From the NCBI GenBank assembly GCA_017416535.1, contig JAFQCG010000005.1:141708-205707 (forward strand): a DNA stretch of 64,000 bases, read 5' to 3'. The position numbers and the translations under genes are program-made. Position 1 is the stretch's first letter; each line of letters begins with the position of its first letter. The notes under the pieces are model-generated. The model was not told the DNA's origin. It saw only the letters and a program-made list of their open reading frames with translations, and did not search any database. This stretch comes from Bacilli bacterium (GTDB lineage: Bacteria; Bacillota_I; Bacilli_A; RF39; UBA660). This document shows, piece after piece, positions 11,654 through 63,188 of the stretch.

Positions 11654-11658
11654 TCTAA

Positions 11659-12487: not shown

Positions 12488-12522
12488 AAACATAGAAAAA
12501 AGCAATTATATTAATTGCTTTA
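12488..12522 (-). terminator. terminator hairpin (AAAGCAATTA..TAATTGCTTT plus U-run) directly after the GT2-GT4 fusion gene
   Basis: Perfect inverted repeat overlapping the stop codon, followed by a T-rich run on minus. Confidence 0.55.
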
Positions 12523-14793: not shown

Positions 14794-14808
14794 TATACCT
14801 CTCCCACT

Positions 14809-16050: not shown

Positions 16051-16174
16051 ATTATCACATCTTTTCTATTCGTAATATTTAACTATTTAGTGTCTATATT
16101 TAAATTATATAATATTTTGAATACCTTGTAAACCTTGGGGAAAATTAAAAAGACTATAGAATATATCTATAATC

Positions 16175-17134: not shown

Positions 17135-17142
17135 ATTTACAC

Positions 17143-18063
17143 CTACTTTCCTAAAGTCTTATGATATAACTTTGGTGATATATTTAGTAATACTTTTTTT
17201 ATCTTTCTAGCAGTTGTATCTGTTAAGATATTATCAAATACTTTTTCTTTCTTTAATTCTTTCTTATATTTTAAATAATCTTTTCCCTTTAAATATGTAA
17301 TTTTCTTAATCATACTGTTAGCGATAAAACTTTTAAAATACGAAGCATCTAAATCTGTTTTATTTACTTCTTTTATTAAATACTTATAATGGAAGAAAAA
17401 GTCATCTGTTTTTTTCTTAATCCATTCGTAATCTTCTGTATTCATTATACTATTTGAACGACGATAGTAATTATATCCTAAGAAATCTAAACAATTTACT
17501 TTTTTTGCTTTTACTATCCATAGTGGTACTGTTCCAAAGTCTTCATGTACCCTATCTTTTGCAAAAGCAAATTTTTCTTTTTCATAGAATTTTCTTTTTA
17601 CTGCATAAATACATGCTGAATCCACATAATGAAAACTTGTTATCTCTTTAAAAGCATCTACTCCAGATAAACCTTCAAATGGCTTTTCATTATAGTCTAC
17701 TGTTTCATTTTCATCATTTACAGTTCTTATTTGAAATCTAATTACATCAGCGTCATTTTTACTACTTTCATCTAATTTCTTTAGTAAATCCTTATCCCAC
17801 CAATCATCACTATCAAGTAATACTAAATAGTCTCCCTTTGCTTCTTTAATAGCAGCATTTCTTACTACACTCAATCCAGCATGCTTATGTTCTATAACTT
17901 TTACATCAAATTTCTTGGCAACTTCAACTGTTTTGTCTGTTGAACCATCGTCAATTACTATTACTTCATAATCTTTGAATGTTTGTTTCTTTACACTATC
18001 TAATGTTTTCTTAATATATTTTTCCATGTTATATGCTGGTATGATTATACTAAATTTTGGCAT
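17143..18063 (-). CDS. glycosyltransferase family 2
   Basis: FSIIIPAYNMEKYIKKTLDSVKKQT...VIVIDDGSTDKT...LDSDD. Confidence 0.8.
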   Translation of the reverse strand: MPKFSIIIPAYNMEKYIKKTLDSVKKQTFKDYEVIVIDDGSTDKTVEVAKKFDVKVIEHKHAGLSVVRNAAIKEAKGDYLVLLDSDDWWDKDLLKKLDESSKNDADVIRFQIRTVNDENETVDYNEKPFEGLSGVDAFKEITSFHYVDSACIYAVKRKFYEKEKFAFAKDRVHEDFGTVPLWIVKAKKVNCLDFLGYNYYRRSNSIMNTEDYEWIKKKTDDFFFHYKYLIKEVNKTDLDASYFKSFIANSMIKKITYLKGKDYLKYKKELKKEKVFDNILTDTTARKIKKVLLNISPKLYHKTLGK

Positions 18064-20372: not shown

Positions 20373-20383
20373 TTAATCACCTA

Positions 20384-24188: not shown

Positions 24189-24213
24189 TAAAAAAGAGGA
24201 TTTTTAATCCTCT
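24189..24213 (-). terminator. terminator (AGAGGATT..AATCCTCT plus U6) for the autolysin gene
   Basis: Stem-loop followed by a T-run on minus; convergent with the previous terminator. Confidence 0.55.
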
Positions 24214-30724: not shown

Positions 30725-32779
30725 CTACTCTTCTATTTCTTTTGGTTTTAATAAATCAAAGACAATTATATCATTTGAAACATCTAATAATTTATTAGCA
30801 TATTCATTATTATTTTTTATTTCTTCTTCACTTACTGCTTCATTTACAAGTGATAGGTATTCACCTTTTTGACTATTATAATATATTTTATTAGTTACCC
30901 AATTTCCATTAGGGAAAACTACTATATTTTTATCTTTTATGTTAAAGATATCATTTCCTAATGAATATTCATTATATATACCTAACATATTACCTAATGT
31001 TGGAGCTGCATCATACATTCCCATAACATTTGATATTTTCTTATTTAGTGATGTTCCTTTCATATCTTTTGTCCAGATAATAAATGGAACTTTTCTTCCT
31101 AATTCATATTGATATGAATCATATTCAACATATCTTTCATCATCTTTATCTAGAAGTTCATCTTCTTCTTTATCATAATTTTTTTCTAAATTATATTCTT
31201 TTTTAGATAATCTAGCATCATGGTCTCCATAAATTACTAGTACTGTATCTTCTAACAATCCAGCTTCATCTAATCCATTTACTAAATCTCCTAATGCTGA
31301 ATCTGCATAATGAAGTGATTTATAATAGTTACCTAGTTTTGTTCCCTCTAAGTATGGATATGATACTTCTTGTGTTGTACCATTTATTTTAACATTTTCT
31401 TTAATATCTACATCAAAGTCTCCATATTTATCTGTATCAGAGAATGGTGTGTGATTTGATAACATAATCATTAATCCATACCAATTGTCGTGTTTCTTAT
31501 CAATTTTCTTTAATTTTTCTACTGATTGAGCAAAGAATTCTTTGTCATTTAATCCTAAACCGATAATATTTTCATCTGTGATTGTATAGTCTTCTTTACT
31601 ATAGAACCTTTTAAATCCAAAATTATTATGCATTATACGTCTATTCCAGAAGTCTGCATTATTTGCATGCATACTAAAGGTATAATAACCTTTTTCTTGT
31701 AGTAATAACGGTGTTGTGATATAAGTTCTATCCGGATAAGATACAAATGCTGTACCACTCTTTGTTGGCATTAATGATGTATTAAATGTTAATTCTGCAT
31801 CTGATGATGTTCCAACACTTACTTGAGAATAGAAATTTGAAAAATACATTCCTTCACTTGATAGTTTATTAAGAGTTGGTGTTACTGGTTGACCATTAAA
31901 TTTCTTGTTAATGGCATTTGTTTGCATACTTTCGGCATGAATTACTAGTACATTTTTACCTTCAAATATATTTGTATATTTATTTGTTTTAACTTTTTTA
32001 TTATCTTCAAAGTATTCTGTAAAGTTTTTATATGCTTTATCATATCCAAACATGGAGTTTATTGTTGGTTGAATTGTTGCAACAACGTCGTTTCCTTGAT
32101 ATACATAAATACCAAAGCATTGAACTATATATTCTTTATTCCATTGTTTTAATAATCTACTTATATCTGTAGGAGTTAATGTTAGTAGGAATACACCAGC
32201 AACTACTGCTCCTGTAATTAATGTTGTAAAAGTTTTCTTTTTACGTTCTGACTTAACTTCTATTCTTTTATAATAATTTTGTTTTTTTAGTTTGTAGTGA
32301 GCAATAAACATAATAATTGGTCCTAGTGCATAGATTAAATCTTTTAATTGAATTACATTTTCTGTTACTGCATCTCCTACTTCTCCTACATATTGTGTAA
32401 GTGATAACATCGATATAGAAGCAAATGATGTATAGTATGTATAATATACTGAGTTAATCATACATATTGCAGTTAAAAATATATTTAATCCTATGTAATA
32501 AGTAAAACGATGTTTTGGTTTAAATAAATAACCAAATGATCCTAATAATATAACTACTGCTGTATCAGCTAATATTGCTTGAATTGAGAAGATACTTTTT
32601 ACTGTAGGCATACAGAATCCTCTTAATAAGGTTGCATTTAAAATTCCTGTTGCGACAAATAGTAAAAACAATACATTATCTTTCATATATTTAGCAATTA
32701 AATGTTCTGTCTTGATTTTTTTGAATACTTTTTTCGTTTGACTTACAAGTTTTTTCAGTCCATGTTTTATTCTTTTCAT
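30725..32779 (-). CDS. lipoteichoic acid synthase family protein (LtaS-type sulfatase-fold phosphoglycerol transferase)
   Basis: 5-TM N-terminal domain plus extracellular sulfatase domain with NVLVIHAESMQ and SQVSVGTSSDAELTFNTSLMP motifs. Confidence 0.85.
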   Translation of the reverse strand: MKRIKHGLKKLVSQTKKVFKKIKTEHLIAKYMKDNVLFLLFVATGILNATLLRGFCMPTVKSIFSIQAILADTAVVILLGSFGYLFKPKHRFTYYIGLNIFLTAICMINSVYYTYYTSFASISMLSLTQYVGEVGDAVTENVIQLKDLIYALGPIIMFIAHYKLKKQNYYKRIEVKSERKKKTFTTLITGAVVAGVFLLTLTPTDISRLLKQWNKEYIVQCFGIYVYQGNDVVATIQPTINSMFGYDKAYKNFTEYFEDNKKVKTNKYTNIFEGKNVLVIHAESMQTNAINKKFNGQPVTPTLNKLSSEGMYFSNFYSQVSVGTSSDAELTFNTSLMPTKSGTAFVSYPDRTYITTPLLLQEKGYYTFSMHANNADFWNRRIMHNNFGFKRFYSKEDYTITDENIIGLGLNDKEFFAQSVEKLKKIDKKHDNWYGLMIMLSNHTPFSDTDKYGDFDVDIKENVKINGTTQEVSYPYLEGTKLGNYYKSLHYADSALGDLVNGLDEAGLLEDTVLVIYGDHDARLSKKEYNLEKNYDKEEDELLDKDDERYVEYDSYQYELGRKVPFIIWTKDMKGTSLNKKISNVMGMYDAAPTLGNMLGIYNEYSLGNDIFNIKDKNIVVFPNGNWVTNKIYYNSQKGEYLSLVNEAVSEEEIKNNNEYANKLLDVSNDIIVFDLLKPKEIEE

Positions 32780-44683: not shown

Positions 44684-46780
44684 TTATACTTTAGATAATT
44701 TTTTGTGATTTTTCATTAATTTCTTGATTCCATGTGGGTGTTTAAAAGCTACGCTAACAAGTGTATTTGTAACTTCTGTTACTCTACCAGTTCCAAATGT
44801 TTCATGGTATACATAATCTCCAACTTGATAGTCAACTTCTTCTTCTCTAAACATTTCTCCAACTTGAATCTTTTCTTCGTGTTGTGGAAGTTCTTCTTTA
44901 GCATTAGACTCTAGTAAGTCTTTTGGAATTTCACTTAGGAAACGACTCACTGGATTAATTTGTTCTTTACCAAACAAAGTTCTTCGTCTGGCATTTACTA
45001 AATGAAGATCATCTTTTGCACGAGTTATTGCTACATAGCATAAACGTCTTTCTTCTTCTAGTTCAGAATTTTCCATTAATGAGTTCATATGTGGGAAAAT
45101 TCCTTCTTCCATACCAACTACAAAAACATGATTATATTCAAGTCCTTTTACAGAGTGAACTGTCATTAAACTTACTCTGTTTGGATCATCTTTATATTCT
45201 TCAACATCACTAATTAAACTTATTTCTAATAAGAAATCTTCTAGAGAGATTAAACCTTCTCTTTCTTCAAAAGATTTAGTAATTGATTTAAATTCTTCTA
45301 GGTTTTCTAAACGAACTTCTGCTTCTAGTGTTTTTTCACTTTCCAAATCTGCTCTTAAGCCTGAAGCGTCTAATACTTTATCAATTAATTCTGTTAGAGT
45401 TAAGTCGTTAGAAATGGCTTTTAATTTTTCAATCGTATTTTTAAAATCCATTTCTTTTCCTCCGGAAATTGCGTCATAGATGCTTGTTCCTTCAAGATCT
45501 GCTTTTTCTTGTAGATTTTCAATTGTTTTTAAACCTATTCCTCTTTTTGGAGTATTAATTGCACGAAGTAAGCTAATGTTATCTTTTGAGTTGTGTATTA
45601 ATCTTAAGTATGCGATCAAGTCCTTAATTTCTTTTCTTGCATAGAAGTATAAACTTCCTACTACTCTATATGGTAGGTTTTCTTTTAAGAATTCATCTTC
45701 TATAACACGAGATTGTGCATTAGTTCTATAAAGAACTACTATATCTTGATATTCTACGCCTCTATTTATTAATTCTTTTACTTTTCTTATTACATACTGA
45801 GCTTCATCTTTTTCATTATATGCTCTATAGTATTTGATTTTATCCCCTACACCTCTTGCAGTCCAAAGGTTTTTATCTTTACGCATTTTATTATTTTTTA
45901 TAACTTGGTTTGCTGCATCAAGAATTGTACTTGTTGAACGATAATTTTCTTCTAGTAAAATTGTTTTTGCATCTTTATAGTCATTTTCAAAGTTTAATAT
46001 GTTTTTATAATTCGCTCCACGGAAACTATAAATACTTTGAGAATCATCTCCTACACAAGTAATTCGTCTATTTTTTGCACATAATAGTTTAGTTAAAATA
46101 TATTGTGCTTCATTTGTATCTTGATACTCATCTATTAATAAATACTGATATAAGTCTTGATACTTTTCTAATGTTTCCGGATACTTTTTAAATAACTCAA
46201 TTGGTAATAATAATAAATCATCAAAATCTACTGAGTTATTTCTTTGTAATTTTGTTTCGTATTTTGCATATACTTGTTGGACTACTTTTTCATAATCACT
46301 TACAGCATATTTTTCATAGTCTTCAGGAGAAGTCATTTCATTCTTACAACTACTGATCTTATTTCGAATTGCACGTGGATTATATATCTTTGGATCATAT
46401 CCCATGTCTTTTATGATTTTTTTTACTACAGTTAATGAATCATCACTATCCATAATTACAAAGTTTTTATCATATCCTAATGCATCATAGTTTTCTCTTA
46501 GTAGCTTAAGTCCAAAACTATGGAAAGTTGATACCTGTAATTTCTTTGCTAGATCTCCTACTAATAAAAACAATCTATCTTTCATTTCTTTTGCAGCTTT
46601 ATTTGTAAATGTAATTGCCAATATATTATGAGGATTTACATTTTCTTCTTCAATTAAATAAGCTATCTTTGTGGTAAGTGTTTTTGTTTTACCAGCTCCA
46701 GCTCCTGCGATAATAAGAAGTGGCCCTTCATTATATAGTACGGCTTCTTTTTGTCTGTCATTTAAACTTGTTATGTCCAT
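44684..46780 (-). CDS. pcrA: ATP-dependent DNA helicase PcrA (UvrD family)
   Basis: AGAGAGKTKTLT Walker A, DEYQDTN, conserved UvrD/PcrA motifs; upstream of ligA as in Bacillus. Confidence 0.9.
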   Translation of the reverse strand: MDITSLNDRQKEAVLYNEGPLLIIAGAGAGKTKTLTTKIAYLIEEENVNPHNILAITFTNKAAKEMKDRLFLLVGDLAKKLQVSTFHSFGLKLLRENYDALGYDKNFVIMDSDDSLTVVKKIIKDMGYDPKIYNPRAIRNKISSCKNEMTSPEDYEKYAVSDYEKVVQQVYAKYETKLQRNNSVDFDDLLLLPIELFKKYPETLEKYQDLYQYLLIDEYQDTNEAQYILTKLLCAKNRRITCVGDDSQSIYSFRGANYKNILNFENDYKDAKTILLEENYRSTSTILDAANQVIKNNKMRKDKNLWTARGVGDKIKYYRAYNEKDEAQYVIRKVKELINRGVEYQDIVVLYRTNAQSRVIEDEFLKENLPYRVVGSLYFYARKEIKDLIAYLRLIHNSKDNISLLRAINTPKRGIGLKTIENLQEKADLEGTSIYDAISGGKEMDFKNTIEKLKAISNDLTLTELIDKVLDASGLRADLESEKTLEAEVRLENLEEFKSITKSFEEREGLISLEDFLLEISLISDVEEYKDDPNRVSLMTVHSVKGLEYNHVFVVGMEEGIFPHMNSLMENSELEEERRLCYVAITRAKDDLHLVNARRRTLFGKEQINPVSRFLSEIPKDLLESNAKEELPQHEEKIQVGEMFREEEVDYQVGDYVYHETFGTGRVTEVTNTLVSVAFKHPHGIKKLMKNHKKLSKV

Positions 46781-46834
46781 TATTTCTACCTACTTCCTAA
46801 TATCATTATATCTTATTTTCATACTATAAGCAAA

Positions 46835-46862
46835 ATAAAAAAGTGTAAGACTATCTTACACT
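46835..46862 (-). terminator. terminator (AAAGTGTAAGA..TCTTACACTTT plus U-run)
   Basis: Hairpin overlapping the stop of the 46851..48065 gene, followed by a T-run on minus. Confidence 0.55.
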
Positions 46863-48065
46863 TTTATAAGCTTCATGTAATTGGGCGAACTTTAATTGTT
46901 CTTGTTTTCTAATTTCTGATTTTAATTTTTGTTCATTTTTCTTTTTTTGTTTTTCTTTAAGAAGCGTTGCTAAAACTTTATAATCTTCTAGAGTGAACAT
47001 ATTATCTAAGTTTTTCATAATTTCTACTGTCTTATCTAACTTAGGCTCTTCTTTTACGTCAAGTACTTCAACCTTTGATTCTTGTAGTTTTTGATTTTCT
47101 TTTTGTAGTCTTGCTTTTTCTTGTTGTAATTTTATTTTTTCTTGTTGTAGTTCAAGTTGTTCAAATTGTAGTGACACTTGTTCTTCTTCTAGTTTATAGT
47201 TTTCTTCTTCTTTTAATTTTATTGTATCTTCATGGATTCTTATTTGCTCTTCAGCTAATTTTAATTTTGAATTAGCTTCAGCAAGTTGTTTTTCTAGGTT
47301 TTCTTTTTCTATTTTGTGTTCATCTACTAATTCGGCAATAATTACGGGTTCTTCATTTACTTTTACTGCTTCTTGTTTTTTAGGTTGTGCTTTTACAAAT
47401 AATGGCACATCTACTTCTTTTATTCCTTCTGGTAAGGCTCTTACTTTTTTTACAATAACTTTTCTTTTTACTGGTACTACATCTTTCTTTTGATATTTTC
47501 TTATTATCTTGTAGAATATTAAGAATATTATCCATACAATAAATATAGCACTTGAGAATTCAATTATTGCTTGAGCATCTTTATTTCCATAAACTGATGT
47601 TTGTGAAAATATATCTAAATTATTTTTTGATATAACATTTAAAACTAATGCTAATAAGTAGTGAATTATACCATATACTGTAATGTTTATATTTCTTACT
47701 AATTTTGCTGTTTTAAAATTAAATACACTTATTAGTAAAATAATATTTGTAATTATTATTGCCACCAAGTAGACTGCCACATTAGGGAAATATAAGACTA
47801 TAAAGAAGTTATTCATCATATAGTCAAACATTTTTCCTAGTGATTCGTGATAGAACACTAATATTGCTATTAGGATTAAACTATATGTTAATCCATATAT
47901 TAGTTTACCTCTCTTAACATTTTTTTTGTTTGTTTTGAGAGCAACTACAGCTAATAAGATTATGAATGCAATAACGGCTATGAATAGTTTTGATGACATT
48001 GATACATCAAATACTATTTTTAATTTTTCTAGTATCGTTGTTTGTGTCATAACCTTCACCCCCAT
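46851..48065 (-). CDS. membrane protein with long C-terminal coiled-coil (E/K/Q-rich heptads), downstream of sortase
   Basis: 5-6 N-terminal TM helices then about 180 aa of coiled-coil sequence (LEKQLAEANSKLKLAEEQIRIHEDTIKLKEEE...). Confidence 0.45.
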   Translation of the reverse strand: MGVKVMTQTTILEKLKIVFDVSMSSKLFIAVIAFIILLAVVALKTNKKNVKRGKLIYGLTYSLILIAILVFYHESLGKMFDYMMNNFFIVLYFPNVAVYLVAIIITNIILLISVFNFKTAKLVRNINITVYGIIHYLLALVLNVISKNNLDIFSQTSVYGNKDAQAIIEFSSAIFIVWIIFLIFYKIIRKYQKKDVVPVKRKVIVKKVRALPEGIKEVDVPLFVKAQPKKQEAVKVNEEPVIIAELVDEHKIEKENLEKQLAEANSKLKLAEEQIRIHEDTIKLKEEENYKLEEEQVSLQFEQLELQQEKIKLQQEKARLQKENQKLQESKVEVLDVKEEPKLDKTVEIMKNLDNMFTLEDYKVLATLLKEKQKKKNEQKLKSEIRKQEQLKFAQLHEAYKSVR

Positions 48066-48076
48066 GAAGTTCTTTT

Positions 48077-48751
48077 TTATTCTTCTACAACACTTTGTAA
48101 TTCTGCAACATAAATTGTTTGTGTTGCTTTATCAAAATTTGTACATGTAATTAATGTTAATGTTGTTTTATCGTAGTTTCTATATATTGCTATTGTTCCT
48201 GTTTTTTGTTGCTTATAGATGTTTACGATTTTATATGTGTATTTTTTTCCTTTATATGATATTTCTGCTTTGTCTCCTGTTGATAATTTGTATAAATCAT
48301 TAAAGAATGCTTTCCATCCTGATCCAGAGTGTGCGGCAATTATTAAGTTTCCTTTCTCCTTATCAGGATAAGAAGAACCTTCTATTACCGTAATATTTTG
48401 TTCAATATTGTTTAACTTGGATCTCATATCTAAGAAACCTTTTTTTAGGTTAATCTTTGGTATTGTTAAATAACCAATATATTCATTAGTTACTTCCCCT
48501 AGTTCTTCTTCCTTTTGTTCTTCTTGTAATTCTCCGTCGTGTTCTAATATTTCAACTTCTTCAGCTTGATAGAAGACGTTAGCCATATAATCATAGGCCA
48601 TTACTCTTTTAGATTGAACATAATTATATGAAAGAAAGAATCCTCCTATTAAGATTATAACTGAACCGATGACAGCTATCGTACTAGAAGAGATTCTTTT
48701 TTCTTGTTTTCTATTATCTTGCTTTACCATTCTTGTATACGTAACTAACAC
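48077..48751 (-). CDS. sortase (class B/D-like transpeptidase)
   Basis: N-terminal TM anchor, catalytic IAAHSG (His) and TLTLITC (Cys). Overlaps the adhesin stop. An internal ATG at 48730 is an alternative start. Confidence 0.8.
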   Translation of the reverse strand: MLVTYTRMVKQDNRKQEKRISSSTIAVIGSVIILIGGFFLSYNYVQSKRVMAYDYMANVFYQAEEVEILEHDGELQEEQKEEELGEVTNEYIGYLTIPKINLKKGFLDMRSKLNNIEQNITVIEGSSYPDKEKGNLIIAAHSGSGWKAFFNDLYKLSTGDKAEISYKGKKYTYKIVNIYKQQKTGTIAIYRNYDKTTLTLITCTNFDKATQTIYVAELQSVVEE

Positions 48752-50231
48752 CTGCAGCGATTATTACAATACCTAATAATGTGATAATTAATGAAGAAGA
48801 TGCAGTGTCTGGCACTGGTACTTCTGGATGGTTTTCAAATGTTATTTGATGTGATAATTCAGTATCTGAGATTATAAATTTCTTAACTTCAGAACTGTGT
48901 TTATATCCATTTGGTGCACTTACTTCTTCAACTGTATATGTACCATTTGCTAAATCTGTTAATACATATGGTTCAGTTGTTGATGTAAATTGTGCAACTG
49001 TATTTCCTGCAGAATCTTTTACTAATAGAACTGCTCCTGCTAAAGCATTTCCTGTTGAAGCATCAACTTTTACGATATTAACAACTGTTTTTCTTGGTGT
49101 ATTTTCAACTTTGATTTTAATATCTCTATTTGTATTTGTAATTGTAAATTTAATTGGAGTCTTATTTAATAAGTATCCAACTGGTGCTTTAGTTTCTTCA
49201 ACTGTATAAGTACCATTTGGTAAATTTCTAATTACGTGATAGTTTGTTGTTGATGTCCAAGAAGTTTTTATATTTCCGTTAGCATCTTTTACAACTAATG
49301 TTGCTCCTGCTAATGAATTTCCTGTTGTTGCATCAACTTTAACTATACTTACTTTTGATGATTCAATTTCTAATGATAGTTTTGCAGTTACATTTACTGT
49401 TTCTTTTTCTGGAATTGAAACTGTAACTGGTTGCATACTATCATCTGTTGGTTTATATTCATATGCTTTGTATACTACTCCTGTAGCACTTGCAGATATA
49501 TTAATTTTTAATGATGTTCCACTTACTGAACTTACTGGAACTTTTACTTTAAATTTTTCTTTAACACCAAAAGATGTTTTTGCATTACCATTTGCATCTA
49601 CTAATTGAATGTTGTTTGCACCAGTTGCTGATACTTTATAAGATGAGATATTGCTATATGATTTAGCATAAATATCTTCTGAAACGTAGTAGTTTCCTTC
49701 TAATTTCATATCAAAATTTGATGCTGTTAATGCTAATGATGTTTTTGCATATCCTGCTTTTTTAGCAGCTTCTGCTTTAGCAACTAAATCTTTGATTGTT
49801 GATCTTAAGTTGTAATCGTCTGATCCTGTTACTTTGAATTTTTGACTTAAGTTTGACCCACCTGCTGTATTATCTAAATACCACCAAAGAGCTGTTTGAG
49901 TGATATAGTAGTCTTTCATTTTATCTCCTGTGAAAGACTTATTTGGATAACCGTTAGTTATGATATACGCAACTCCGGCATCTTTTTCACCTACTAAGTT
50001 AGCAGTGATATTTTTTGCTGTCTTTTTATTCATATTAAGACAGTATAATAATGTACCATCAGTTTTTGTTTTAGTAGTAAATTTTACTCCTGCAACATAT
50101 CCAGGTACGATTTCTGCTCCACCTAATTTAATAGATGAGGCTACTGCACTAGTATTAAGAGATGTAAATAAAATTGCAGCACTAATTAATACTAATAAAA
50201 GTTTTTTTGTTAATTGTGTTAACTTTTTCAT
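48714..50231 (-). CDS. thioester-domain (TED) surface adhesin with two CnaB/SpaA-type Ig domains and a C-terminal sorting signal (VPDTA, TM, KNGKAR)
   Basis: Signal peptide. TED motifs LLYCLN (Cys) and ITQTALWWY (TQxA[IV]W). Two tandem about 85-aa repeats (VKVDATTGN.LAGA.L.VKD..GN). C-terminus PVPDTASSS plus hydrophobic stretch plus KNGKAR. Confidence 0.8.
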   Translation of the reverse strand: MKKLTQLTKKLLLVLISAAILFTSLNTSAVASSIKLGGAEIVPGYVAGVKFTTKTKTDGTLLYCLNMNKKTAKNITANLVGEKDAGVAYIITNGYPNKSFTGDKMKDYYITQTALWWYLDNTAGGSNLSQKFKVTGSDDYNLRSTIKDLVAKAEAAKKAGYAKTSLALTASNFDMKLEGNYYVSEDIYAKSYSNISSYKVSATGANNIQLVDANGNAKTSFGVKEKFKVKVPVSSVSGTSLKINISASATGVVYKAYEYKPTDDSMQPVTVSIPEKETVNVTAKLSLEIESSKVSIVKVDATTGNSLAGATLVVKDANGNIKTSWTSTTNYHVIRNLPNGTYTVEETKAPVGYLLNKTPIKFTITNTNRDIKIKVENTPRKTVVNIVKVDASTGNALAGAVLLVKDSAGNTVAQFTSTTEPYVLTDLANGTYTVEEVSAPNGYKHSSEVKKFIISDTELSHQITFENHPEVPVPDTASSSLIITLLGIVIIAAGVSYVYKNGKAR

Positions 50232-50260
50232 AATTTTCCCCCTTCACTAAATGTGGCTAT

Positions 50261-50290
50261 ATTATAACACAAAAGTTTGATTTTGGCAAG
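50261..50290 (-). promoter_or_regulatory. consensus sigma-A promoter (TTGCCA, 17 nt, TATAAT) for the adhesin-sortase operon
   Basis: Minus-strand reading TTGCCAaaatcaaacttttgtgtTATAAT about 35 nt upstream of RBS GAAGGGGGAAAATTATG. Confidence 0.55.
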
Positions 50291-50311
50291 TTTTATCTGC
50301 CTCGACACACT

Positions 50312-50345
50312 ATTATAATCAAAAAAAGGTTCTTTTTGAACCTTT
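50312..50345 (-). terminator. terminator (AAAGGTTC..GAACCTTT plus U-run)
   Basis: Palindrome with T-runs, downstream of the 50359 gene end. Confidence 0.55.
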
Positions 50346-50358
50346 TTTACTGTTTTTT

Positions 50359-50901
50359 TTACATTTTTATTGTTTTTTTGAAAATTATATTGTCGTTTAT
50401 ATCATAAATAATAAAATCTTCTTCATTATAGTACAAATACGTTGGTCCTACATCTGATTTTGGAAGTGATATTGAACCAGGATTTATATAAGTATTTGTC
50501 TCAATTTCTTTAATAAATGGTATATGCAAATGTCCATATATTAAATATGAATTTGTTTTATTCCAGTTGGATTCATTATATATATGTCCATGAGTTAAAT
50601 ATAGATCTTCATTTATTGTTGATATTAGACCTAATTCTGAAACAATAGGAAAGTTTGATACCATTTTATCAACTTCTGAATCACAATTTCCTTTTATACA
50701 AATTAATTTATCATTAAATGATTCTAAAAATTCTTTTACATAATTTATATCATATCCATCTATCATAGTATTTCTTGGACCAATATAATATAAATCACCT
50801 AATACAACTAATTTATCACATTCTAATTCTTTAAATCTTTCTTTTATTTTAGGAAGATTTGTCTTAATTCCATGTATATCTGATATAAATAGTATCTTCA
50901 T
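50359..50901 (-). CDS. YfcE-like metallophosphoesterase
   Basis: MKILFISDIHG...VVLGDLY...GNCD...YGHLH metallophosphatase motifs; 180 aa. Confidence 0.8.
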   Translation of the reverse strand: MKILFISDIHGIKTNLPKIKERFKELECDKLVVLGDLYYIGPRNTMIDGYDINYVKEFLESFNDKLICIKGNCDSEVDKMVSNFPIVSELGLISTINEDLYLTHGHIYNESNWNKTNSYLIYGHLHIPFIKEIETNTYINPGSISLPKSDVGPTYLYYNEEDFIIYDINDNIIFKKTIKM

Positions 50902-53277: not shown

Positions 53278-54210
53278 TCATATTATAACAAATCTATTGT
53301 TTTTAGTCAATTTGTTAAGTCTTTTATTAGCTTTATTCCAAAGATATTCACTTATTATTGGTGGGAATTTTTCATAATCTTTATACATTATCCACTTATT
53401 TTTAGGAATCAACTTTACTTTTTTAGTCATATAGTCAATTACTTCACATTTTCCTCCAACATAATATCCTTTATATTTTGGATTTCTTATTAATCTTGAA
53501 AGTGCTGTTGCACTAAAGTGTTTATTATTAGTAGTTTTTATATTTTTGGATTTTAAAATCCTGGCTATTTCGTGAAGAGATTTATTTTTTGTTGCATATA
53601 ACTTATATATTTCATTTATTATATTTGCTTGTTGATTATTTATTATATACTTATCATTTATTTTTTTATAACCATATATTTTTTGATTTCCTAAGATAGT
53701 TCCTTTTTTTATTGATTCTTTCATTCCAAACTTTACTCGTTCTGATAGCTTTCTTATTTCATCTTGAGCAAGGGAAGACATTATTGTTAATCTTAATTCA
53801 CTATCAGGTAATATTGTATTTATATTATCATTTATAAATAATACTCCTACTCCATTTTTTAAAAGTTCTCTTGTGTATTTTATACTATCTAGTGTATTTC
53901 TTGAAAAACGGGATATTTCTTTAGTAATAATTAAATCAAATTTATTTTCTTTAGCATCATTAATCATTTTCATAAAACTTGTTCTTTTTATATCTGATGT
54001 TCCTGTTATACCATTATCTATATATCCTTTACTATAAATCCAATTTTTATTTTTATTAATTATTTCTTCAAAATAACTTTGTTGATTTTTAAGAGAAGTC
54101 TTTTGTTCTTCGCTTGTTGTTGAGACTCGTGAATAATATGTTACTCTTAGAGGTATATTTGTTAGGGGAATTCCTATACTTAGTTCTTGTCTAACTTTAT
54201 ATAAGTCCAT
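53278..54210 (-). CDS. serine recombinase (resolvase catalytic domain plus recombinase domain, lacks zinc-ribbon/coiled-coil)
   Basis: YYSRVSTTSEEQKTSLKNQ (catalytic Ser region), DLIITKEISRFSRN, C-terminal recombinase-domain-like YGYKK...IARILKSKNIKT...NPKYKGYYV; 310 aa. Confidence 0.8.
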   Translation of the reverse strand: MDLYKVRQELSIGIPLTNIPLRVTYYSRVSTTSEEQKTSLKNQQSYFEEIINKNKNWIYSKGYIDNGITGTSDIKRTSFMKMINDAKENKFDLIITKEISRFSRNTLDSIKYTRELLKNGVGVLFINDNINTILPDSELRLTIMSSLAQDEIRKLSERVKFGMKESIKKGTILGNQKIYGYKKINDKYIINNQQANIINEIYKLYATKNKSLHEIARILKSKNIKTTNNKHFSATALSRLIRNPKYKGYYVGGKCEVIDYMTKKVKLIPKNKWIMYKDYEKFPPIISEYLWNKANKRLNKLTKNNRFVII

Positions 54211-54280
54211 TTTATATACTCTTTCTATTCATAAAAAAATCACATCCTAATTTAGGATATGATTTATTTTGTTATTTATT

Positions 54281-55624
54281 CTAATCTTGTTTTTGTTCTA
54301 AATCTACTGACTTGATAGTTAATAAATATAAGTCATCATTATGTTTAATATAGAAACAGCATTTTGTATGTTTTGTTACTACATAGTACATAATTGGTAA
54401 TTTTAAATTATCTCTTACGTCTAGTAATTCTTCGAACTTTGATATTTTAATCACATTTGTATTACTTGTATCTGGACCTGTTCCATTTTCAACAATTAAT
54501 CTATCATATTCATTTAGAATTTTTTCTACGTATTTATCATAGATTGATTTTTTTCCTCTTAATAAGATTAGTAATCTTAAAGTTTTAATTCCAAATACTA
54601 ACATAGCAATTAGAGATATTATTGATAAAATGCCAAATATAATATTATCTGTTTTTGTATCGATGTTTTGAATTACATAATTAGAATTATTAATATCTTG
54701 ATAGTTTAATTCAATATTAATTGCCTTTTCAGATAATGGTATTTTAACAAACATAGTACTATTTTCAACTGCATTAGAGGCATTTTCAATATTAGTATTT
54801 TTATTTACTCTTAAATATACAGTTAAGTAACTTGTTGTATCTAATCCAAATTGTTGTTTAAAACTGTTAGCTAAATTATTATAGTATGCATAATCAATTT
54901 TAACTTTTTCATTTAAATTATAATTTGTACCAGATTTTATACTTTTTCTTTGATTATTTAATAAAACGTATTCTTTTTCAAAGTAATTATTTTTTGATGA
55001 GCCATCATCTATTGTTAGTTTAGCTACAATACTATAATTGAAATCTACATTTGAAGGTTTTTCAATATTATAATTATATCTAAAATTAATTTCTATATTA
55101 TCAATTAAGTTAGCTATGTATACTTTGTTTTTTCCTAAATAATCTGATTCATAGAAATTATTTTCTTTTAAGTATACTTTGTAGTCAAGATTACTCATTT
55201 CATTATAGTTAATCATTTGATTAGTTGTTTTACTAAAAGCTCCTTGAAGAAAGATGATTGTGATTATGAATAATGCTATGAAAGTTAGAGAGTTTGCTAA
55301 TAATCTTGTTTTATAATCTACGTAATGTTCACTTTTATTAGTTACATTATTTAAAAAACTTTTCTTTTCAGTTTTTTCTTCTATTGCTTCGCTTTCATCA
55401 TATACAAAAATATCATTTTCATATGTTTCTTCATATTGAGGTAACTCTTCATTTTCAGTTTTTATTACTCTTTCTTCATGAGTAATTTCTTCTACTTGTT
55501 CTTCTGTTTGTTCTTCATTATTTAATTCTTTGTTTTCATCAGCAATTTCTTCACCAATTATTTCTTCATCAAATAATTCTTCTATATTTTCACTCATAGT
55601 CAACCTCCTATTTTTACATTTCAT
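54281..55624 (-). CDS. two-TM membrane protein with acidic N-terminus and N/Y-rich extracytoplasmic domain; possibly a DUF5305-like SipW/TasA-operon partner
   Basis: 447 aa. Located immediately downstream of the sipW-like gene with an 11-nt overlap. Confidence 0.45.
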   Translation of the reverse strand: MKCKNRRLTMSENIEELFDEEIIGEEIADENKELNNEEQTEEQVEEITHEERVIKTENEELPQYEETYENDIFVYDESEAIEEKTEKKSFLNNVTNKSEHYVDYKTRLLANSLTFIALFIITIIFLQGAFSKTTNQMINYNEMSNLDYKVYLKENNFYESDYLGKNKVYIANLIDNIEINFRYNYNIEKPSNVDFNYSIVAKLTIDDGSSKNNYFEKEYVLLNNQRKSIKSGTNYNLNEKVKIDYAYYNNLANSFKQQFGLDTTSYLTVYLRVNKNTNIENASNAVENSTMFVKIPLSEKAINIELNYQDINNSNYVIQNIDTKTDNIIFGILSIISLIAMLVFGIKTLRLLILLRGKKSIYDKYVEKILNEYDRLIVENGTGPDTSNTNVIKISKFEELLDVRDNLKLPIMYYVVTKHTKCCFYIKHNDDLYLLTIKSVDLEQKQD

Positions 55625-56741
55625 TTAACCATACTGTAGGTAAACCAAGATATGGTATAACAAATTCTACTGTTCCAATAATTGTATCTTGTTCTACTAC
55701 GTAGTTATCTTCTTTTGCATTAGCATCTCCTTTTGTATATACATAATACTCACCTTTTTCTTCTATTATGTTTACAATTCTATGAACTACTAATACTCCA
55801 TGATATGTATAAGCAATTACTTGCCCTTTTTCTAATTTATCATATTGCTTATCTATTTTTTCAATTACTACTATATCACCTTTTGAAATTGCTTTTTCCA
55901 TACTACCACTTGCAATTGCGACTGCATAGTAATGGAAATATCCAGATGTAAAATATACTAATATTGTTACTAATACTGTAGGTATAATTAAAGACCAGGC
56001 AGATGTTTTATTATAATTTCTATCTACTTCTTGATCTGCTGTTAGATTGAAAAATCCACTTAATTTATATCCTAATAATATTGGTAATAAAAACCTTATA
56101 ATTGATGCAATATACTCATTTGGATTTGGTACTAAAGGTAATAAGTATTGATATAAATTCATTACTAGTAAATATAATATGTTTGGTTTATATCCAACTT
56201 TAAATGTTAAATATGAACATACTATATTTGTGCTAATTGCAGGTAATAATGTTAATGCAAAGAAAATAAATGTATCATACTTTGATGAAAACCCATTATA
56301 AAATATCGGATTTGTTACATCTAAAAAGATAAATAATATACATGATAATATCATTAGTATTTTATTACCTTCTGATTTCATAATAACTTGATATCTTAAA
56401 AATTCTTTTAATATTATTGTTATTATGATTGGTATTATAAATGTTTTTATACCATTTAAAGTATAGTAATTATCAGTTCTTGCAAAACCTATTATTAATC
56501 CTGATAAATAGTATATTAAGAAAAAGATTAACAGAAAAATTATTACATCAAATATAATATCTTTTGTAAAACGATGTCGATCTTTTTCAATTCCAAAAAA
56601 CAACTTAAATATAATTATTGTTAATATTAAAAATACTATTGTTGTGTAATTTCCTAATATGTTATGAATAAAACTATTTAGGATTAGTATGAAAAACATG
56701 ATAAGTTGAAATATTAATAATTTTTTGTACCCTCTTTTCAT
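55614..56741 (-). CDS. SipW-type (ER/archaeal-type, Ser/His) signal peptidase I fused to an N-terminal about 250-aa polytopic membrane domain
   Basis: C-terminal IASGSMEKAISKGDIVVIEK...VLVVHRIV...YTKGDANAKED matches the SipW SGSMEP / HRI / KGDAN motifs. Preceded by about 8 TM helices. Confidence 0.75.
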   Translation of the reverse strand: MKRGYKKLLIFQLIMFFILILNSFIHNILGNYTTIVFLILTIIIFKLFFGIEKDRHRFTKDIIFDVIIFLLIFFLIYYLSGLIIGFARTDNYYTLNGIKTFIIPIIITIILKEFLRYQVIMKSEGNKILMILSCILFIFLDVTNPIFYNGFSSKYDTFIFFALTLLPAISTNIVCSYLTFKVGYKPNILYLLVMNLYQYLLPLVPNPNEYIASIIRFLLPILLGYKLSGFFNLTADQEVDRNYNKTSAWSLIIPTVLVTILVYFTSGYFHYYAVAIASGSMEKAISKGDIVVIEKIDKQYDKLEKGQVIAYTYHGVLVVHRIVNIIEEKGEYYVYTKGDANAKEDNYVVEQDTIIGTVEFVIPYLGLPTVWLNEM

Positions 56742-56798
56742 CCTTTCCCTCCTATATTCTATATACTAGGAAAGACACAATTTTTTTGTGTCTACATT

Positions 56799-57455
56799 TT
56801 AATCTACTGTGTCGTATTTAAGTGTAATGTCACCAAATGAAACATTGAAGTTTCCGTCTGCTCTATTTCCACCAGCAGCATATGATATTTTAACTACAAC
56901 TTTTTCTTTTGTATTTTTTTCTAATTTATGATTGCTGATAGTTGCTTGCGATCCAGATACTGCTGCATCATCTCCAACCTTAACTGTTACTGATATTGAT
57001 TCACAAGCTGCACTAACTAATGAGGCAGTTGTTGTAGCAGGATTTGTTGCTGCACAATATCTAGGTGCTGATTGTCCCTCTACATTTGCAAAGACAATTG
57101 AATTTAAATATGCATCATATTCTCCTTCATTGTGTACATAGAAAGTATATGATACTTCTTGTCCTGGCTGTGTAACGTTTGCTTTTAAACCAGAGATTCT
57201 TGCTCCTGATACTGTTGCTTGAGATGCATAGTATCCTAAATTGTCAGATTGTGCAGGTGTTCCAACAACACTTGTTGTGATTCCTGATTCACTTCCTGAT
57301 AAGTTAATTTTGAAATTTTCACTACTTGGACTTACATATGCACTTGATGATATTGTTAAAGTGTTTGAGAAAGCTGCAAATCCTAAAGTTAAACCAAATA
57401 CAGCAACTACTAGTGCTACTACTGCAATAATTTTTGAACTTCTATTCTTTTCCAT
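56799..57455 (-). CDS. TasA/camelysin (peptidase M73) family secreted fibre protein with SipW-cognate-type signal peptide
   Basis: Signal VVALVVAVFGLTLGFAAFSN (compare TasA GGGTWAAFND). NVTQPGQEVSYTFYVHNEGEY resembles the TasA beta-sandwich core. Confidence 0.75.
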   Translation of the reverse strand: MEKNRSSKIIAVVALVVAVFGLTLGFAAFSNTLTISSSAYVSPSSENFKINLSGSESGITTSVVGTPAQSDNLGYYASQATVSGARISGLKANVTQPGQEVSYTFYVHNEGEYDAYLNSIVFANVEGQSAPRYCAATNPATTTASLVSAACESISVTVKVGDDAAVSGSQATISNHKLEKNTKEKVVVKISYAAGGNRADGNFNVSFGDITLKYDTVD

Positions 57456-57564: not shown

Positions 57565-57969
57565 GAACCTAATGCATTAGAAATTGAAAAAAATGGATAT
57601 GGCTATGTTGTTGCAAGTGTTGGCGAAATTGGAGGGATTGTTCCTTATACCTCTTATTCAGCAAGAAAAAGTTATATAGAAAATAATAATGATGAAATAA
57701 ATAAGTTTACTAGAGCAATCCAAAAAGGTTTGGATTATGTTCATAATCATAGTGATAAGGAAGTTGCAGAGGCAATACTTGATCAATTTCCAGATACATC
57801 TTTAAATGATTTAGAAAAAGTAGTAAAAAGATATCGAGAAATAGATGCTTGGCCTAAAACAACTAGTTTTAGTAAAAAATCCTTTGACCATTTACAAGAT
57901 ATAATGGTTGACTATGGAGCAATTAATGAAAAAGTTAATTATGATAAGTTGATTTACAATGAAAAATAA
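57565..57969 (+). pseudogene. 3' part of the interrupted NMT1-type ABC substrate-binding protein gene
   Basis: In-frame continuation (E)PNALEIEKNGYGYVVASVGEIGG...KLIYNEK*; overlaps the downstream ABC ATPase start by 11 nt. Confidence 0.7.
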
Positions 57970-58708
57970 ATTATTAAGTATAGTAAATTTAAAAAAAATA
58001 TATCACACAAAAAATGATGATGTATTGGCACTAGAGGATATAAGTTTTGATGTCTACGAAAACGAGTTTATTTCTATAGTTGGACCAAGTGGCTGTGGTA
58101 AATCCACAATTCTCTCAATACTTGCTAGATTAGAAGATAAAACTAGCGGAATTATTAGTTTTAAAGATAATTTAAGTGTTGGCTATATGTTACAAGATGA
58201 TTGTTTATTTGAATGGAAAAGTATTTTAGATAATTGTTTAGTTGGACTTGAAATTTCTAAAAAGAAAACCGATGAAGGTATTGAATATGTTCTGAATCTT
58301 TTAAGGACTTATGGGTTATATGAGTTTAAAGATATGTACCCTTCTAGTTTGTCAGGTGGAATGAGACAAAGAGTTGCATTAATTAGAACCCTTGCACTAA
58401 ATCCAGATGTTTTACTTTTAGATGAACCTATGTCAGCGCTTGATTCTCAATCGAGAATGGCTATTGGAGAAGACATTTATAATATAATTAAAAATGAAGG
58501 TAAAACAGCTATTATGGTAACTCATGATCTTAATGAGGCCATTAGTATGTCAGATAAAGTCATTGTTTTATCAAAAAGACCTGCTACTATAAAAAATATT
58601 TATGAAATAAATTTAGATAGTAAAACAACTCCTATAAAAAATCGTAGTGATGATAAATTTTCTTTTTACTATGATAATATTTGGAGGGATTTAGATGTTC
58701 ATATCTGA
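57959..58708 (+). CDS. ABC transporter ATP-binding protein (nitrate/sulfonate/bicarbonate, SsuB/TauB-like)
   Basis: GPSGCGKST, LSGGMRQRVALIRTL, LLLDEP. Confidence 0.85.
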   Translation: MKNKLLSIVNLKKIYHTKNDDVLALEDISFDVYENEFISIVGPSGCGKSTILSILARLEDKTSGIISFKDNLSVGYMLQDDCLFEWKSILDNCLVGLEISKKKTDEGIEYVLNLLRTYGLYEFKDMYPSSLSGGMRQRVALIRTLALNPDVLLLDEPMSALDSQSRMAIGEDIYNIIKNEGKTAIMVTHDLNEAISMSDKVIVLSKRPATIKNIYEINLDSKTTPIKNRSDDKFSFYYDNIWRDLDVHI

Positions 58709-59486
58709 AGAAAGAAAAAGATATTTATCTAAAATTAAAAGAGAAAAGCTCTTTGTAAGTTTTTTTAGATTTCTAATTATATTTATTTTTATAATTGGAT
58801 GGGAAGTTTTAGCAAGATTTGATATTATTAATACTTTTACATTTTCTTCTCCAAGTTTAATTATAAAAACATTTGCTGAGTTATTAAGAAATGGTTCTTT
58901 ATTTTCACATATTGGAATAACTTCATATGAAGTAATACTCTGCTTTCTTTTAGCAACTATTATAGGTTTATTATTTGCTGTTTTATTATGGTTTGTTCCA
59001 ATTTTTTCTAAAATTGTAGACCCCTATTTAACTGTATTAAACTCATTACCTAAGGTATCTCTAGGACCACTTATTATTATTTGGGTTGGAGCAAGTATTA
59101 ATTCTATAATACTTATGTCTCTTCTTATAAGTACATTTATTACAATAATTAATATTTATAATGGTTTTACTTCTACTAATAAAAACTATATTATTTTATT
59201 AAAAAGTTTTGGTGCGAATAAATGGCAAATATTTAAATATGTTGTCTTCCCAAGTAATATGCAGGTAATAATTAGTGCTTTAAAAATTAATGTTTCAATG
59301 AATTTAATTGGTGTTATTATGGGGGAATTATTGGTATCAAAAAAAGGTATTGGCTACTTAATCATGTATGGGTCACAAGTATTTAATATTAATTTGGTAA
59401 TTACTGGGGTTGTAATACTGGGAATAATTTCTTATTTAATGTATTTTATAATAGATACGTTTGAAAAGAACTTTAATAATAAATAA
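58695..59486 (+). CDS. ABC transporter permease (SsuC/TauC-like binding-protein-dependent inner-membrane component)
   Basis: 6-TM permease; overlaps the ATPase gene by 14 nt. Confidence 0.8.
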   Translation: MFISEERKRYLSKIKREKLFVSFFRFLIIFIFIIGWEVLARFDIINTFTFSSPSLIIKTFAELLRNGSLFSHIGITSYEVILCFLLATIIGLLFAVLLWFVPIFSKIVDPYLTVLNSLPKVSLGPLIIIWVGASINSIILMSLLISTFITIINIYNGFTSTNKNYIILLKSFGANKWQIFKYVVFPSNMQVIISALKINVSMNLIGVIMGELLVSKKGIGYLIMYGSQVFNINLVITGVVILGIISYLMYFIIDTFEKNFNNK

Positions 59487-61942: not shown

Positions 61943-62767
61943 TTAATATCCTTCTTTTAATCCAGCACTATCATAGAATAAACTTCTTCCACCTTCTTGA
62001 TATTTTTTAGTATATCTAAAGTAGACAAAAATAGGTTTTCCGGTAGAAGTTATATACACGTAATTATCACATGTACAACGATCTTGATCAGCCATCTTTT
62101 TTGTTAACATAAATTCATCATCAAATTCATTAACAATATCTTTGTAGTTTATAAAGTTATCTTTTGTATACTCATTTACTTGCATCATTGATATAAATCC
62201 AACCTGATTTATTTGAGTATCATTTAAACTTTCTAAGAAATTAATTACTTCTTTTTTACTATCAATATAATCTTTTATTAGTAAACAATTTATTCGTAAG
62301 TCCGCTTTGCTCTTTAGTTGTTTTATTTTATCAAGTGTGATTGTTTTAGTTTGAAATACTTCATTATTTTTTTCATCTAAATAATGATGTCTACTTAATT
62401 GAATTGATTCAATTGGATACTTATTTAACATTGGAAGTGTTTTTTCTAATAATATACCATTGGTATTAAGTGTAATTCTGGGATCGTATTTTTTTAGTAG
62501 TTTTAATAAATCTTCCAAGTTTTCACAGTTTAGTAGAGTTTCTCCTCCGCTAATTGAAAATCTGCTTATTTTTTTATGTACTATGTCTATTATACTTTCC
62601 AACTCATTTAGATCTAATTTTCCAAAGTTCTTATTACATTCATTTGAACAAAATTTACATTTGGCATTACAAATATTTGTTACATTAATATAAAATGGAA
62701 ATTCATTACATGGTGAACATGCATATTCTTTTATATTATATTTTTTACCATTAACATCTAATTCCAC
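61943..62767 (-). CDS. radical SAM enzyme (small, 274 aa, no SPASM domain)
   Basis: CX3CX2C NICNAKCKFC, SISGGETLL (GGE motif). GTG start preceded by TAGGAAAT. Overlaps the 3' end of the repeat-peptide gene by 17 nt. Confidence 0.75.
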   Translation of the reverse strand: MELDVNGKKYNIKEYACSPCNEFPFYINVTNICNAKCKFCSNECNKNFGKLDLNELESIIDIVHKKISRFSISGGETLLNCENLEDLLKLLKKYDPRITLNTNGILLEKTLPMLNKYPIESIQLSRHHYLDEKNNEVFQTKTITLDKIKQLKSKADLRINCLLIKDYIDSKKEVINFLESLNDTQINQVGFISMMQVNEYTKDNFINYKDIVNEFDDEFMLTKKMADQDRCTCDNYVYITSTGKPIFVYFRYTKKYQEGGRSLFYDSAGLKEGY

Positions 62768-63188
62768 TTTGATTTCCTACTTCTTTATTTATTGGTAAAA
62801 TCATTTTTGAATAAGGTTTCTTACTTGAGAATGAGCTTCCACATGACGGATGTCCTCCAATGTTTCTATTATTTGAACTTCCACATGAAGGATGTCCTCC
62901 TCCATATCCCCAACCGCGACTCGAACCACAAGATGGGTGTCCTCCTCCATATCCATAATCATCATTTGATGTTCCACATGATGGATGTGCCATCATTGTA
63001 ATTTGATCACTTTCTTGAAAATAATTTTCATTAATTTCATATCCATGTTTTCTTAATGCTTTATTAAACACCTCTCTTGATTGTGGTGTTGCGAATAGGA
63101 ACGGACATAAATTTCCTAAATCTTCAACCGATTGAACTGGATTTTCTGAACGTCTAAATATTTTTTCAATTAATTGTTCTTGTTTCAT
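62751..63188 (-). CDS. 145-aa peptide with four tandem G-G-H-P-S-C-G-[ST]-S repeats; candidate radical-SAM-modified precursor or metal-binding repeat protein
   Basis: RBS GGAGGGAAAC before ATG 63188. About 67-aa N-terminal region, then AHPSCGTS...GGGHPSCGSS...GGGHPSCGSS...GGHPSCGSS, and a C-terminal Cys. DNA shows 4 copies of CCACATGA(A/T)GGATGTCC on plus. Confidence 0.6.
   Translation of the reverse strand: MKQEQLIEKIFRRSENPVQSVEDLGNLCPFLFATPQSREVFNKALRKHGYEINENYFQESDQITMMAHPSCGTSNDDYGYGGGHPSCGSSRGWGYGGGHPSCGSSNNRNIGGHPSCGSSFSSKKPYSKMILPINKEVGNQSGIRC

Follow-up and report, generated by a model that had tools for sequence, protein, structure and literature searches.

A sortase-like family with glutamine at the canonical arginine position, paired with a predicted thioester-domain adhesin bearing a VP[DN]T sorting signal in uncultured gut Bacilli

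Can a sortase do without the arginine of its catalytic triad? The question is raised by a three-gene cassette on the minus strand of a 64,000-nt stretch of a Bacilli bacterium genome (assembly GCA_017416535.1, contig JAFQCG010000005.1; hereafter the window, within which coordinates are given). A His-Cys-Arg triad is stated in the recent literature to be common to all sortases (PMC13257024). The cassette encodes an adhesin with a thioester domain (TED), a sortase whose gene overlaps that of the adhesin, and a membrane protein; a first-pass annotation of the same DNA had reported the first two as a pair, with a VPDTA sorting motif on the adhesin and no conserved Arg in the sortase. Across this family, the canonical Arg position is occupied by a conserved Gln. 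The best explanation, which we consider likely, is an active sortase subfamily in which the Arg→Gln replacement, together with a remodelled β6/β7 loop, would retune recognition of the sorting signal.

The absence of Arg after the catalytic Cys was borne out, over the 21 residues past Cys203 and not the 25 first counted. By raw count it is not significant, because at the Arg frequency of the window (2.7%) a run of 21 residues without Arg has P = 0.56; what is decisive is the positional conservation of Gln. The canonical triad places Arg at the start of β8, and here Gln211 stands in its place: in an ungapped phmmer alignment of TCTNFDKATQTIYVAEL (family) with TCTDPEATERIIVHAEL (GBS SrtA, 3rcc) it falls on the catalytic Arg, and the family profile aligned with Bacillus anthracis SrtA (BaSrtA, 2kw8) gives the same pairing (KQTVYIAEL / KRYVVAGDL). 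The spacing of Cys203 and Gln211 (Cys+8) is that of C208 and R216 in Streptococcus pyogenes SrtA (SpySrtA). Short-loop class A sortases (GBS SrtA and BaSrtA) were used to set the Gln/Arg register in place of SaSrtA, whose β7/β8 loop is longer; the hhalign alignment with SaSrtA is silent on Gln versus Arg because it ended at residue 207. In phmmer and hmmsearch comparisons with Clostridium perfringens SrtD and class C sortases, Arg lies one residue off Gln211 in ungapped register or the alignment stops short of β8, and these comparisons carry no weight in setting the register.

Conservation of this residue was assessed at several depths. When 1.84 billion cluster representatives were searched, 150 relatives were obtained at E ≤ 1e-28, down to approximately 33% identity, and Gln211 is present in 133 of the 136 aligned rows (the query and 135 near-full-length representatives). 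Among 120 close homologues (73–100% identity), all 118 with readable C-termini carry T/S-Q-T at this position. Within the family, 98 sequences place the Gln eight residues after the Cys and 32 place it seven residues after. One genome per species was also scanned, which yielded 511 matching stretches, from which 80 loci were retrieved and inspected; every one retains the Gln. The appearance of an Arg upon proper alignment had been set beforehand as a test of the proposal of an unusual triad. None was found, with Gln211 aligning instead, and the proposal stands, extended to the family as a whole.

The protein otherwise has the features expected of a sortase. It matches Pfam PF04203 (67 bits), carries an N-terminal TM (transmembrane) anchor at residues 23–42, and is predicted by AlphaFold2 (AF2) to adopt the eight-stranded β-barrel of the sortase fold (PF04203 / MEROPS C60). 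This model, built from a 144-sequence alignment, has a predicted local distance difference test (pLDDT) score of 90.3; an earlier model from a shallow 28-sequence alignment (pLDDT 46) was discarded. It comprises an N-terminal helix (22–63), β7 (197–203) ending at Cys203, β8 (210–223), and a loop spanning 183–196. Both the catalytic Cys (TLITC203, at the end of β7) and the catalytic His (IAAH141SG) are present and conserved in the family; His141, Cys203, Asn114, Pro129, Gly143, and Phe150 show no variation, or almost none, across the 136 rows. By analogy with characterized sortases, Thr202, the residue preceding the catalytic Cys, is proposed as an oxyanion-hole residue.

Assignment to a known class was not supported. 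No NCBIfam class model reached its cut-off (class C, 70.3 of 160 bits; SrtD, 55.8 of 140; class D, 43.9 of 165; class E, 41.5 of 160; class F, 27.1 of 166; GN, 23.7 of 158), and the class A and B models gave no sortase match at E ≤ 0.01. The sequence scores highest against class C/pilus sortases. The DP[FWY] lid motif of class C occurs in none of 144 family members, and there is no C-terminal TM segment, a median of only 21 residues following the Cys. The β6/β7 loop carries a family-specific K-T-G...R pattern (Table 1) where aligned PDB sortases have xPxD/E. The best reading of these sequence comparisons is that the sortase represents a distinct, previously unclassified subfamily.

Turning to the substrate, the adhesin begins with a signal peptide and contains all of the elements listed in the first-pass annotation: the TED motifs with Cys (LLYCLN) and Gln (TQTALWW), two SpaA repeats, and a C-terminal VPDTA/TM/KNGKAR arrangement. 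Among solved structures, the nearest to it is that of the B. anthracis TED protein 6fwv (E = 3.9e-29). The NCBIfam TQXA_dom model scores 20.9 bits, under its cut-off of 30.4, and PF17802 scores 118 bits across two stretches, with 60 bits for the second repeat. A close homologue is named by NCBI as a 'Cys-Gln thioester bond-forming surface protein'. Judged by its domain score and by the alignment of its Cys and Gln, the adhesin is of the TED type, and the thioester itself is predicted.

The C-terminus of the adhesin has the tripartite organization of a cell wall sorting signal (motif, hydrophobic segment, and basic tail), which is kept in all 79 orthologues. The motif departs from canonical LPXTG in having V at P4, a fixed D/N at P2, and a variable P1′ residue, and an NCBIfam scan of the adhesin gave no match to the LPXTG-anchor-domain model. 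Across the 79 orthologous adhesins, V, P, and T are each invariant and the third position is D (45) or N (34); the fifth position is A (40), S (14), N (10), G (9), D (3), or K (3), and is followed by a Ser/Ala/Thr-rich stretch and then the TM segment. The unusual constant of the signal is thus D/N at the normally free 'X' position. The xPxTA-type specificity suggested earlier does not hold, and neither does a class D-like one, given the varied fifth residue and the class D models that fall far under their cut-offs.

The pairing of adhesin and sortase recurs in relatives: a protein of approximately 505 aa is encoded directly 5′ of the sortase in all 79 loci with upstream DNA, with gene overlaps of 7–67 nt. 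Related signals also lie near distant family members (33–40% identity), namely VPNTS in loci L081 and L085 and VPNTG in L084, while L087 has VPDTG on a TED-like protein and L083 has VGDTY. A second family of secreted proteins, of approximately 330–370 aa and without a Pfam domain, is encoded a few kb off in seven loci. Its C-termini read VDNTA, VDNTS, VENTA, VIDTA, VPNTA, IPDTG, or IPNTG before a TM segment and basic tail. These proteins may be further candidate substrates of the Gln-sortase, in which case Pro would be dispensable, and their C-termini therefore suggest a broader [VI]-x-[DN]-T signal and more than one substrate. The idea of a 'dedicated' sortase is accordingly retained only in part: the gene overlap is universal, and the relatives encode additional candidate substrates.

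Neither the window nor 1.1 Mb of related loci showed an LPXTG-type C-terminus, and a second nearby sortase was sought and rejected, since the window and each related locus gave a single sortase match; both searches stopped short of whole genomes. In L084, a single 486-aa open reading frame (ORF; 1790–3250) runs from a TED/SpaA substrate, whose last residues are EVPNTG, straight into a Gln-sortase domain, without a TM segment or basic tail between the parts. The contig is 3.5 kb long, and the ORF is either a genuine fusion or an assembly or frameshift artefact.

The third gene encodes a protein with approximately five TM segments within residues ~25–187 of the ORF, followed by a coiled-coil tail that the positive-inside rule places in the cytoplasm. 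Of the 80 loci, 78 have a homologue called 3′ of the sortase, and a blastp search with the window protein matched in every one of these; the gene is also present in the distant loci L081 (E = 2e-19) and L083, and is replaced in L087 by an Amidase_3 gene. Conservation is concentrated in the N-terminal ~190 residues, with the motif MFDYMMNNFFIxIYFPN, and the length of the coiled-coil tail varies. Pfam and NCBIfam scans assigned the protein to no family. This co-conserved protein is probably an accessory factor with a role in localization or scaffolding.

How, then, could the enzyme function? We propose that the TED-SpaA-SpaA adhesin is secreted and then retained in the membrane through its hydrophobic segment and basic tail. 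The membrane-anchored sortase would cleave V-P-(D/N)-T on the C-terminal side of its Thr, by way of a thioacyl intermediate on Cys203, assisted by His141, and would pass the adhesin to the cross-bridge of a peptidoglycan precursor. The chemistry would be unchanged, with the Cys, the His, and an oxyanion hole of Thr202 and backbone amides all kept. In structures of SpySrtA–peptide complexes, the Arg hydrogen-bonds to the P4/P3 backbone carbonyls and makes no contact with the P1 carbonyl, and the Thr before the Cys makes up the oxyanion hole together with backbone amides (PMC9520033). Furthermore, an evolved SaSrtA with Arg197→Ser that recognizes LMVGG is an efficient transpeptidase of altered specificity (PMC9520033). 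In the present family the two elements in contact with P4–P2, namely the β8 Arg and the first part of the β6/β7 loop, have both been replaced, and the signal differs precisely at P4–P2; hence the proposal of a retuned transpeptidase. The two changes would adapt P4–P2 recognition to V/I at P4 and D/N-T at P2–P1, with relaxed P1′, and Gln211 would serve as a shorter, neutral hydrogen-bond donor in the recognition groove. The oxyanion hole of papain includes a Gln side chain, and neutral citrulline reportedly can substitute for Arg197 in SaSrtA.

Against this proposal, canonical sortases lose their activity when the Arg is changed to Ala (PMC9520033, PMC13257024), and activity in the absence of Arg is assumed here from conservation. 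The activity, cleavage site, acceptor, and role of Gln211 are likewise read from sequence and should be taken as predictions.

Among the alternatives, the one that survives best is a relocated basic residue, in which K183 or R191 would supply the Arg function, giving a His-Cys-Lys/Arg triad with Gln211 merely filling space. The K183 position is basic in 134 of 136 rows and the R191 position in 120 (R in 110, K in 10), and both residues are family-specific and belong to the loop lining the groove in which the signal binds. However, R191 is variable, whereas Gln211 is retained in nearly every row, and the alignments suggest that K183 and R191 correspond to the wall of the P4/P3 pocket rather than the catalytic centre; we therefore regard relocation as unlikely.

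Somewhat less probable again is a different acceptor, whereby the sortase would join the adhesin to a protein amine, by polymerization or by attachment to the five-TM partner, rather than to lipid II. The class C/pilus sortases to which the enzyme is most similar, the use of VPDTG by the pilus subunit RrgC, the typical occurrence of TED-SpaA proteins as pilus-tip adhesins, and the co-conservation of the third gene (78 of 80 loci) all point in this direction. Yet the 144 members lack the DP[FWY] lid, there is no C-terminal TM segment, the class C model reaches 70 of the 160 bits of its cut-off, the operon holds a single substrate gene, no obvious pilin motif was seen, the positive-inside rule predicts a cytoplasmic location for the coiled coil of the partner, and machinery for the cell wall cross-bridge is encoded.

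The inactivity of Arg→Ala variants in the sortases studied raises a further alternative, that the protein is an impaired or hydrolytic enzyme: a pseudo-sortase with a chaperone or retention role, or else a protease releasing the adhesin. The Cys, the His, the preceding Thr, and the TLITC motif are all conserved, as is the Gln over several hundred species, and a signal of the cleavable type is strictly kept; these are the signatures of a working active site. Together with the efficient transpeptidation by the evolved Arg→Ser SaSrtA, they make an impaired enzyme very improbable. Finally, an artefactual loss of the Arg, through a frameshift or an error in sequencing or assembly, can be dismissed with near certainty, as independent assemblies from many studies and hosts share this C-terminus.

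The proposed retuned family can be set beside known systems. With the class A sortases that have a short β7/β8 loop (SpySrtA, GBS SrtA 3rcc, and BaSrtA 2kw8) it shares the fold, the N-terminal anchor, the His, TLxTC with its Thr before the Cys, the Cys+8 spacing, and the ungapped β8 'AEL'; it differs in having Gln for the β8 Arg, K-T-G...R for the xPxD/E loop, and VP[DN]T-x for the LPXTG signal. With class C sortases, for example Streptococcus pneumoniae SrtC-3/RrgC (VPDTG) and the Ebp sortase 24rr, it has in common a VPDT core and a TED/SpaA-type substrate, but it possesses neither lid nor C-terminal TM segment, carries Gln for Arg, and does not fix Gly at P1′; its operon, unlike those of class C, holds one substrate gene. 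Relative to C. perfringens SrtD (class D5, 4d70) and the LPxTA class D enzymes, the present family has a signal that varies at P1′ and does not keep L-P, and its sortase lacks the Arg. For the adhesin, 6fwv has the same order of TED Cys/Gln followed by SpaA/CnaB repeats, with a different sorting signal and sortase type.

Precedents for the loss of Arg are few. In silico work reportedly places Asn at the Arg position of actinobacterial class F sortases (Malik & Kim 2019, as cited in PMC6998099). In so far as that secondary account describes them, they too represent a natural amide replacement of the 'invariant' Arg with the His and Cys kept, in another class, another phylum, and with another residue (Asn versus Gln). 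The evolved Arg197→Ser SaSrtA is also an Arg-less transpeptidase, but is engineered and carries Ser, not Gln. We know of no VP[DN]T signal or three-gene cassette for the Arg→Asn class F enzymes. A literature search of restricted scope found no description of this Arg-less family, with the class F Arg→Asn case as sole precedent; nor did we find a description of the combination reported here, namely a conserved Gln, VP[DN]T with variable P1′, the absence of a lid or class, and a fixed membrane partner.

Arguably, this is a new sortase class, sortase-like in all but one defining feature of the triad. The fuller form of that idea is a seventh class defined by His-Cys-Gln, a [V/I]-x-[D/N]-T signal, promiscuous P1′, and an obligate five-TM partner, possibly as the only sortase of its clade; we put it forward tentatively, as possible and on balance doubtful. 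Such a class would belong to a large clade of uncultured, reduced-genome gut Bacilli, and its five-TM partner might position sorting at a defined site in the envelope or present the acceptor. The role of the Arg in sortases is disputed, between oxyanion stabilization and substrate positioning, and the Gln family offers a natural test: the Arg→Gln change has been kept over at least 136 divergent clusters, the signal has changed in step, and the residues of the chemistry are retained. If the seventh-class reading is true, the 'catalytic' Arg would be a determinant of specificity and not part of the chemistry, and VP[DN]T with relaxed P1′ would suggest itself as an orthogonal motif for sortase-mediated protein ligation. 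The cassette also points to a way in which abundant uncultured gut Bacilli, often mislabelled as Mycoplasma or Tenericutes, may display a covalently binding adhesin.

The cassette reads as one operon (46839–50289) running from promoter through adhesin, overlapping sortase, and five-TM/coiled-coil protein to terminator (Table 1). The first-pass annotation delimited it at 48077–50231, an interval that covers two genes and leaves out the third; its inclusion of the membrane protein and promoter in the operon is supported by the conservation of the downstream gene and by the best-scoring promoter. This promoter sits approximately 30 nt 5′ of the adhesin start, and a strong ribosome-binding site (RBS), AAGGGGGA, precedes the adhesin ATG. 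Most sortase homologues start at the position equivalent to the ATG at 48730 (M8), from which the overlap with the adhesin gene is 17 nt, compared with 38 nt from the GTG start. An RBS, GGGGGTGA, lies ahead of the ATG at 48050 (M6) of the membrane-protein gene. Between the operon and an upstream metallophosphoesterase gene is a bidirectional terminator-like hairpin (50322–50348).

Table 1. Features of the cassette, cell wall genes of the window, and second-family proteins in related loci (positions are within the window unless a locus is named)
Feature	Position	Strand	Remarks
Promoter, sigma-70-type	50261–50289	-	TTGCCA-17-TATAAT, TG-extended -10; 11/12 matches, top match in 46600–50500
Adhesin gene	48714–50231	-	505 aa; predicted secreted, with TED, two SpaA domains, and C-terminal sorting signal
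Thioester domain, residues 62–154	49770–50048	-	Pfam PF08341, 43.3 bits (cut-off 22)
Cys64 codon (LLYCLN)	50040–50042	-	aligns to Cys of 6fwv
Gln112 codon (TQTALWW)	49896–49898	-	aligns to Gln of 6fwv
Two SpaA/CnaB-type prealbumin-fold domains, residues 293–378 and 384–467	48831–49355	-	PF17802
Cell wall sorting signal, whole	48717–48815	-	tripartite C-terminus
VPDTA, residues 473–477	48801–48815	-	signal motif
Hydrophobic segment	48735–48800	-	22 residues, after VPDTA
Basic tail KNGKAR	48717–48734	-	C-terminal end of adhesin
Sortase ORF	48077–48751	-	224 aa from GTG; likely start ATG at 48730 (M8), 217 aa
His141 codon (IAAHSG)	48329–48331	-	catalytic His; invariant, 136/136 representatives
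K183-T-G185	48197–48205	-	β6/β7 loop; K183 132/136, G185 134/136
R191	48179–48181	-	β6/β7 loop; Arg 110/136, Lys 10/136
Thr202-Cys203 (TLITC)	48143–48148	-	Cys 135/136; Thr 133/136, Ser 3/136
Gln211 codon CAA	48119–48121	-	start of β8, Cys+8; canonical catalytic-Arg position
Partner membrane protein	46851–48050	-	likely start ATG at 48050; ORF reaches 48065
Terminator-like hairpin and T-run	46839–46865	-	12-pair stem; end of third gene
FemAB-family protein	5761–6999	-	cell wall function
Five-PASTA protein	22269–24149	+	
Glucosaminidase/Ig-like surface protein	24212–27751	-	1179 aa
LCP-PASTA fusion	27946–30045	+	
LtaS-like sulfatase-domain protein	30725–32779	-	
Second-family protein	L069:12984–13964		
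Second-family protein	L080:9676–10719		
Second-family protein	L025:14530–16659		
Second-family protein	L050:15338–16444		
Second-family protein	L070:12843–13925		
Second-family protein	L074:12137–13246		

The genome has a GC content of 27%, and all retrieved relatives are uncultured metagenome-assembled genomes (MAGs) from gut or rumen, labelled Bacilli bacterium, Tenericutes, Mycoplasma sp. CAG:877, or Candidatus Faecimonas (Bacilli incertae sedis). A wall-less host was considered and rejected on the basis of the cell wall genes in the window. FemAB, PASTA, LCP, LtaS-like, and glucosaminidase genes (Table 1) indicate that the host has a Gram-positive-type wall, with peptidoglycan and a cross-bridge, despite the Mycoplasma and Tenericutes labels; the usual sortase acceptor would therefore be available, and anchoring of the adhesin to peptidoglycan is plausible. 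The ORF at the start of the window has a C-terminal sequence that, read by eye, we take to resemble a GH25 muramidase.

The cassette adjoins pcrA and an NTP-transferase gene, and further neighbours are, as we read their translations, presumably ligA and gatCAB. As the pcrA neighbourhood is shared with locus L044, the cassette appears to occupy a conserved chromosomal position rather than an island.

An NMT1-type ATP-binding cassette (ABC) substrate-binding gene (50973–~51600, +) matches only positions 5–145 of the 216 in its profile, and approximately 6 kb of minus-strand genes separate it from an ATPase (57959–58708) and a permease (58695–59486). In related genomes the transporter permease lies only ~3.5 kb from the adhesin gene, so this part of the window looks like an element integrated into a transporter operon. 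Inside the insertion lie four minus-strand genes (53278–57455): a serine recombinase with Resolvase and Recombinase domains but of only 310 aa, a DUF5305 protein (54281–55624), a protein that resembles S26/S24 signal peptidases and has a membrane region at its N-terminus (55614–56741), and a secreted protein of 218 aa for which Pfam gave no match (56799–57455). The four genes are arranged in a way that may parallel the SipW-type clusters of a dedicated signal peptidase and its substrates.

Elsewhere in the window, a long block of glycosyltransferase genes (10880–22126, -) includes an O-antigen-ligase-like/GT1 fusion protein (18063–20372) and, at 10880–11737 (-), a likely transporter permease recognized from its C-terminal sequence. 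Its gene content suggests a locus for cell-surface polysaccharide or teichoic acid. Finally, a radical S-adenosylmethionine (SAM) protein (61943–62767, -) adjoins a 145-aa ORF (62751–63188, -), the ends of the two genes overlapping, and together they could be a peptide-modification pair.

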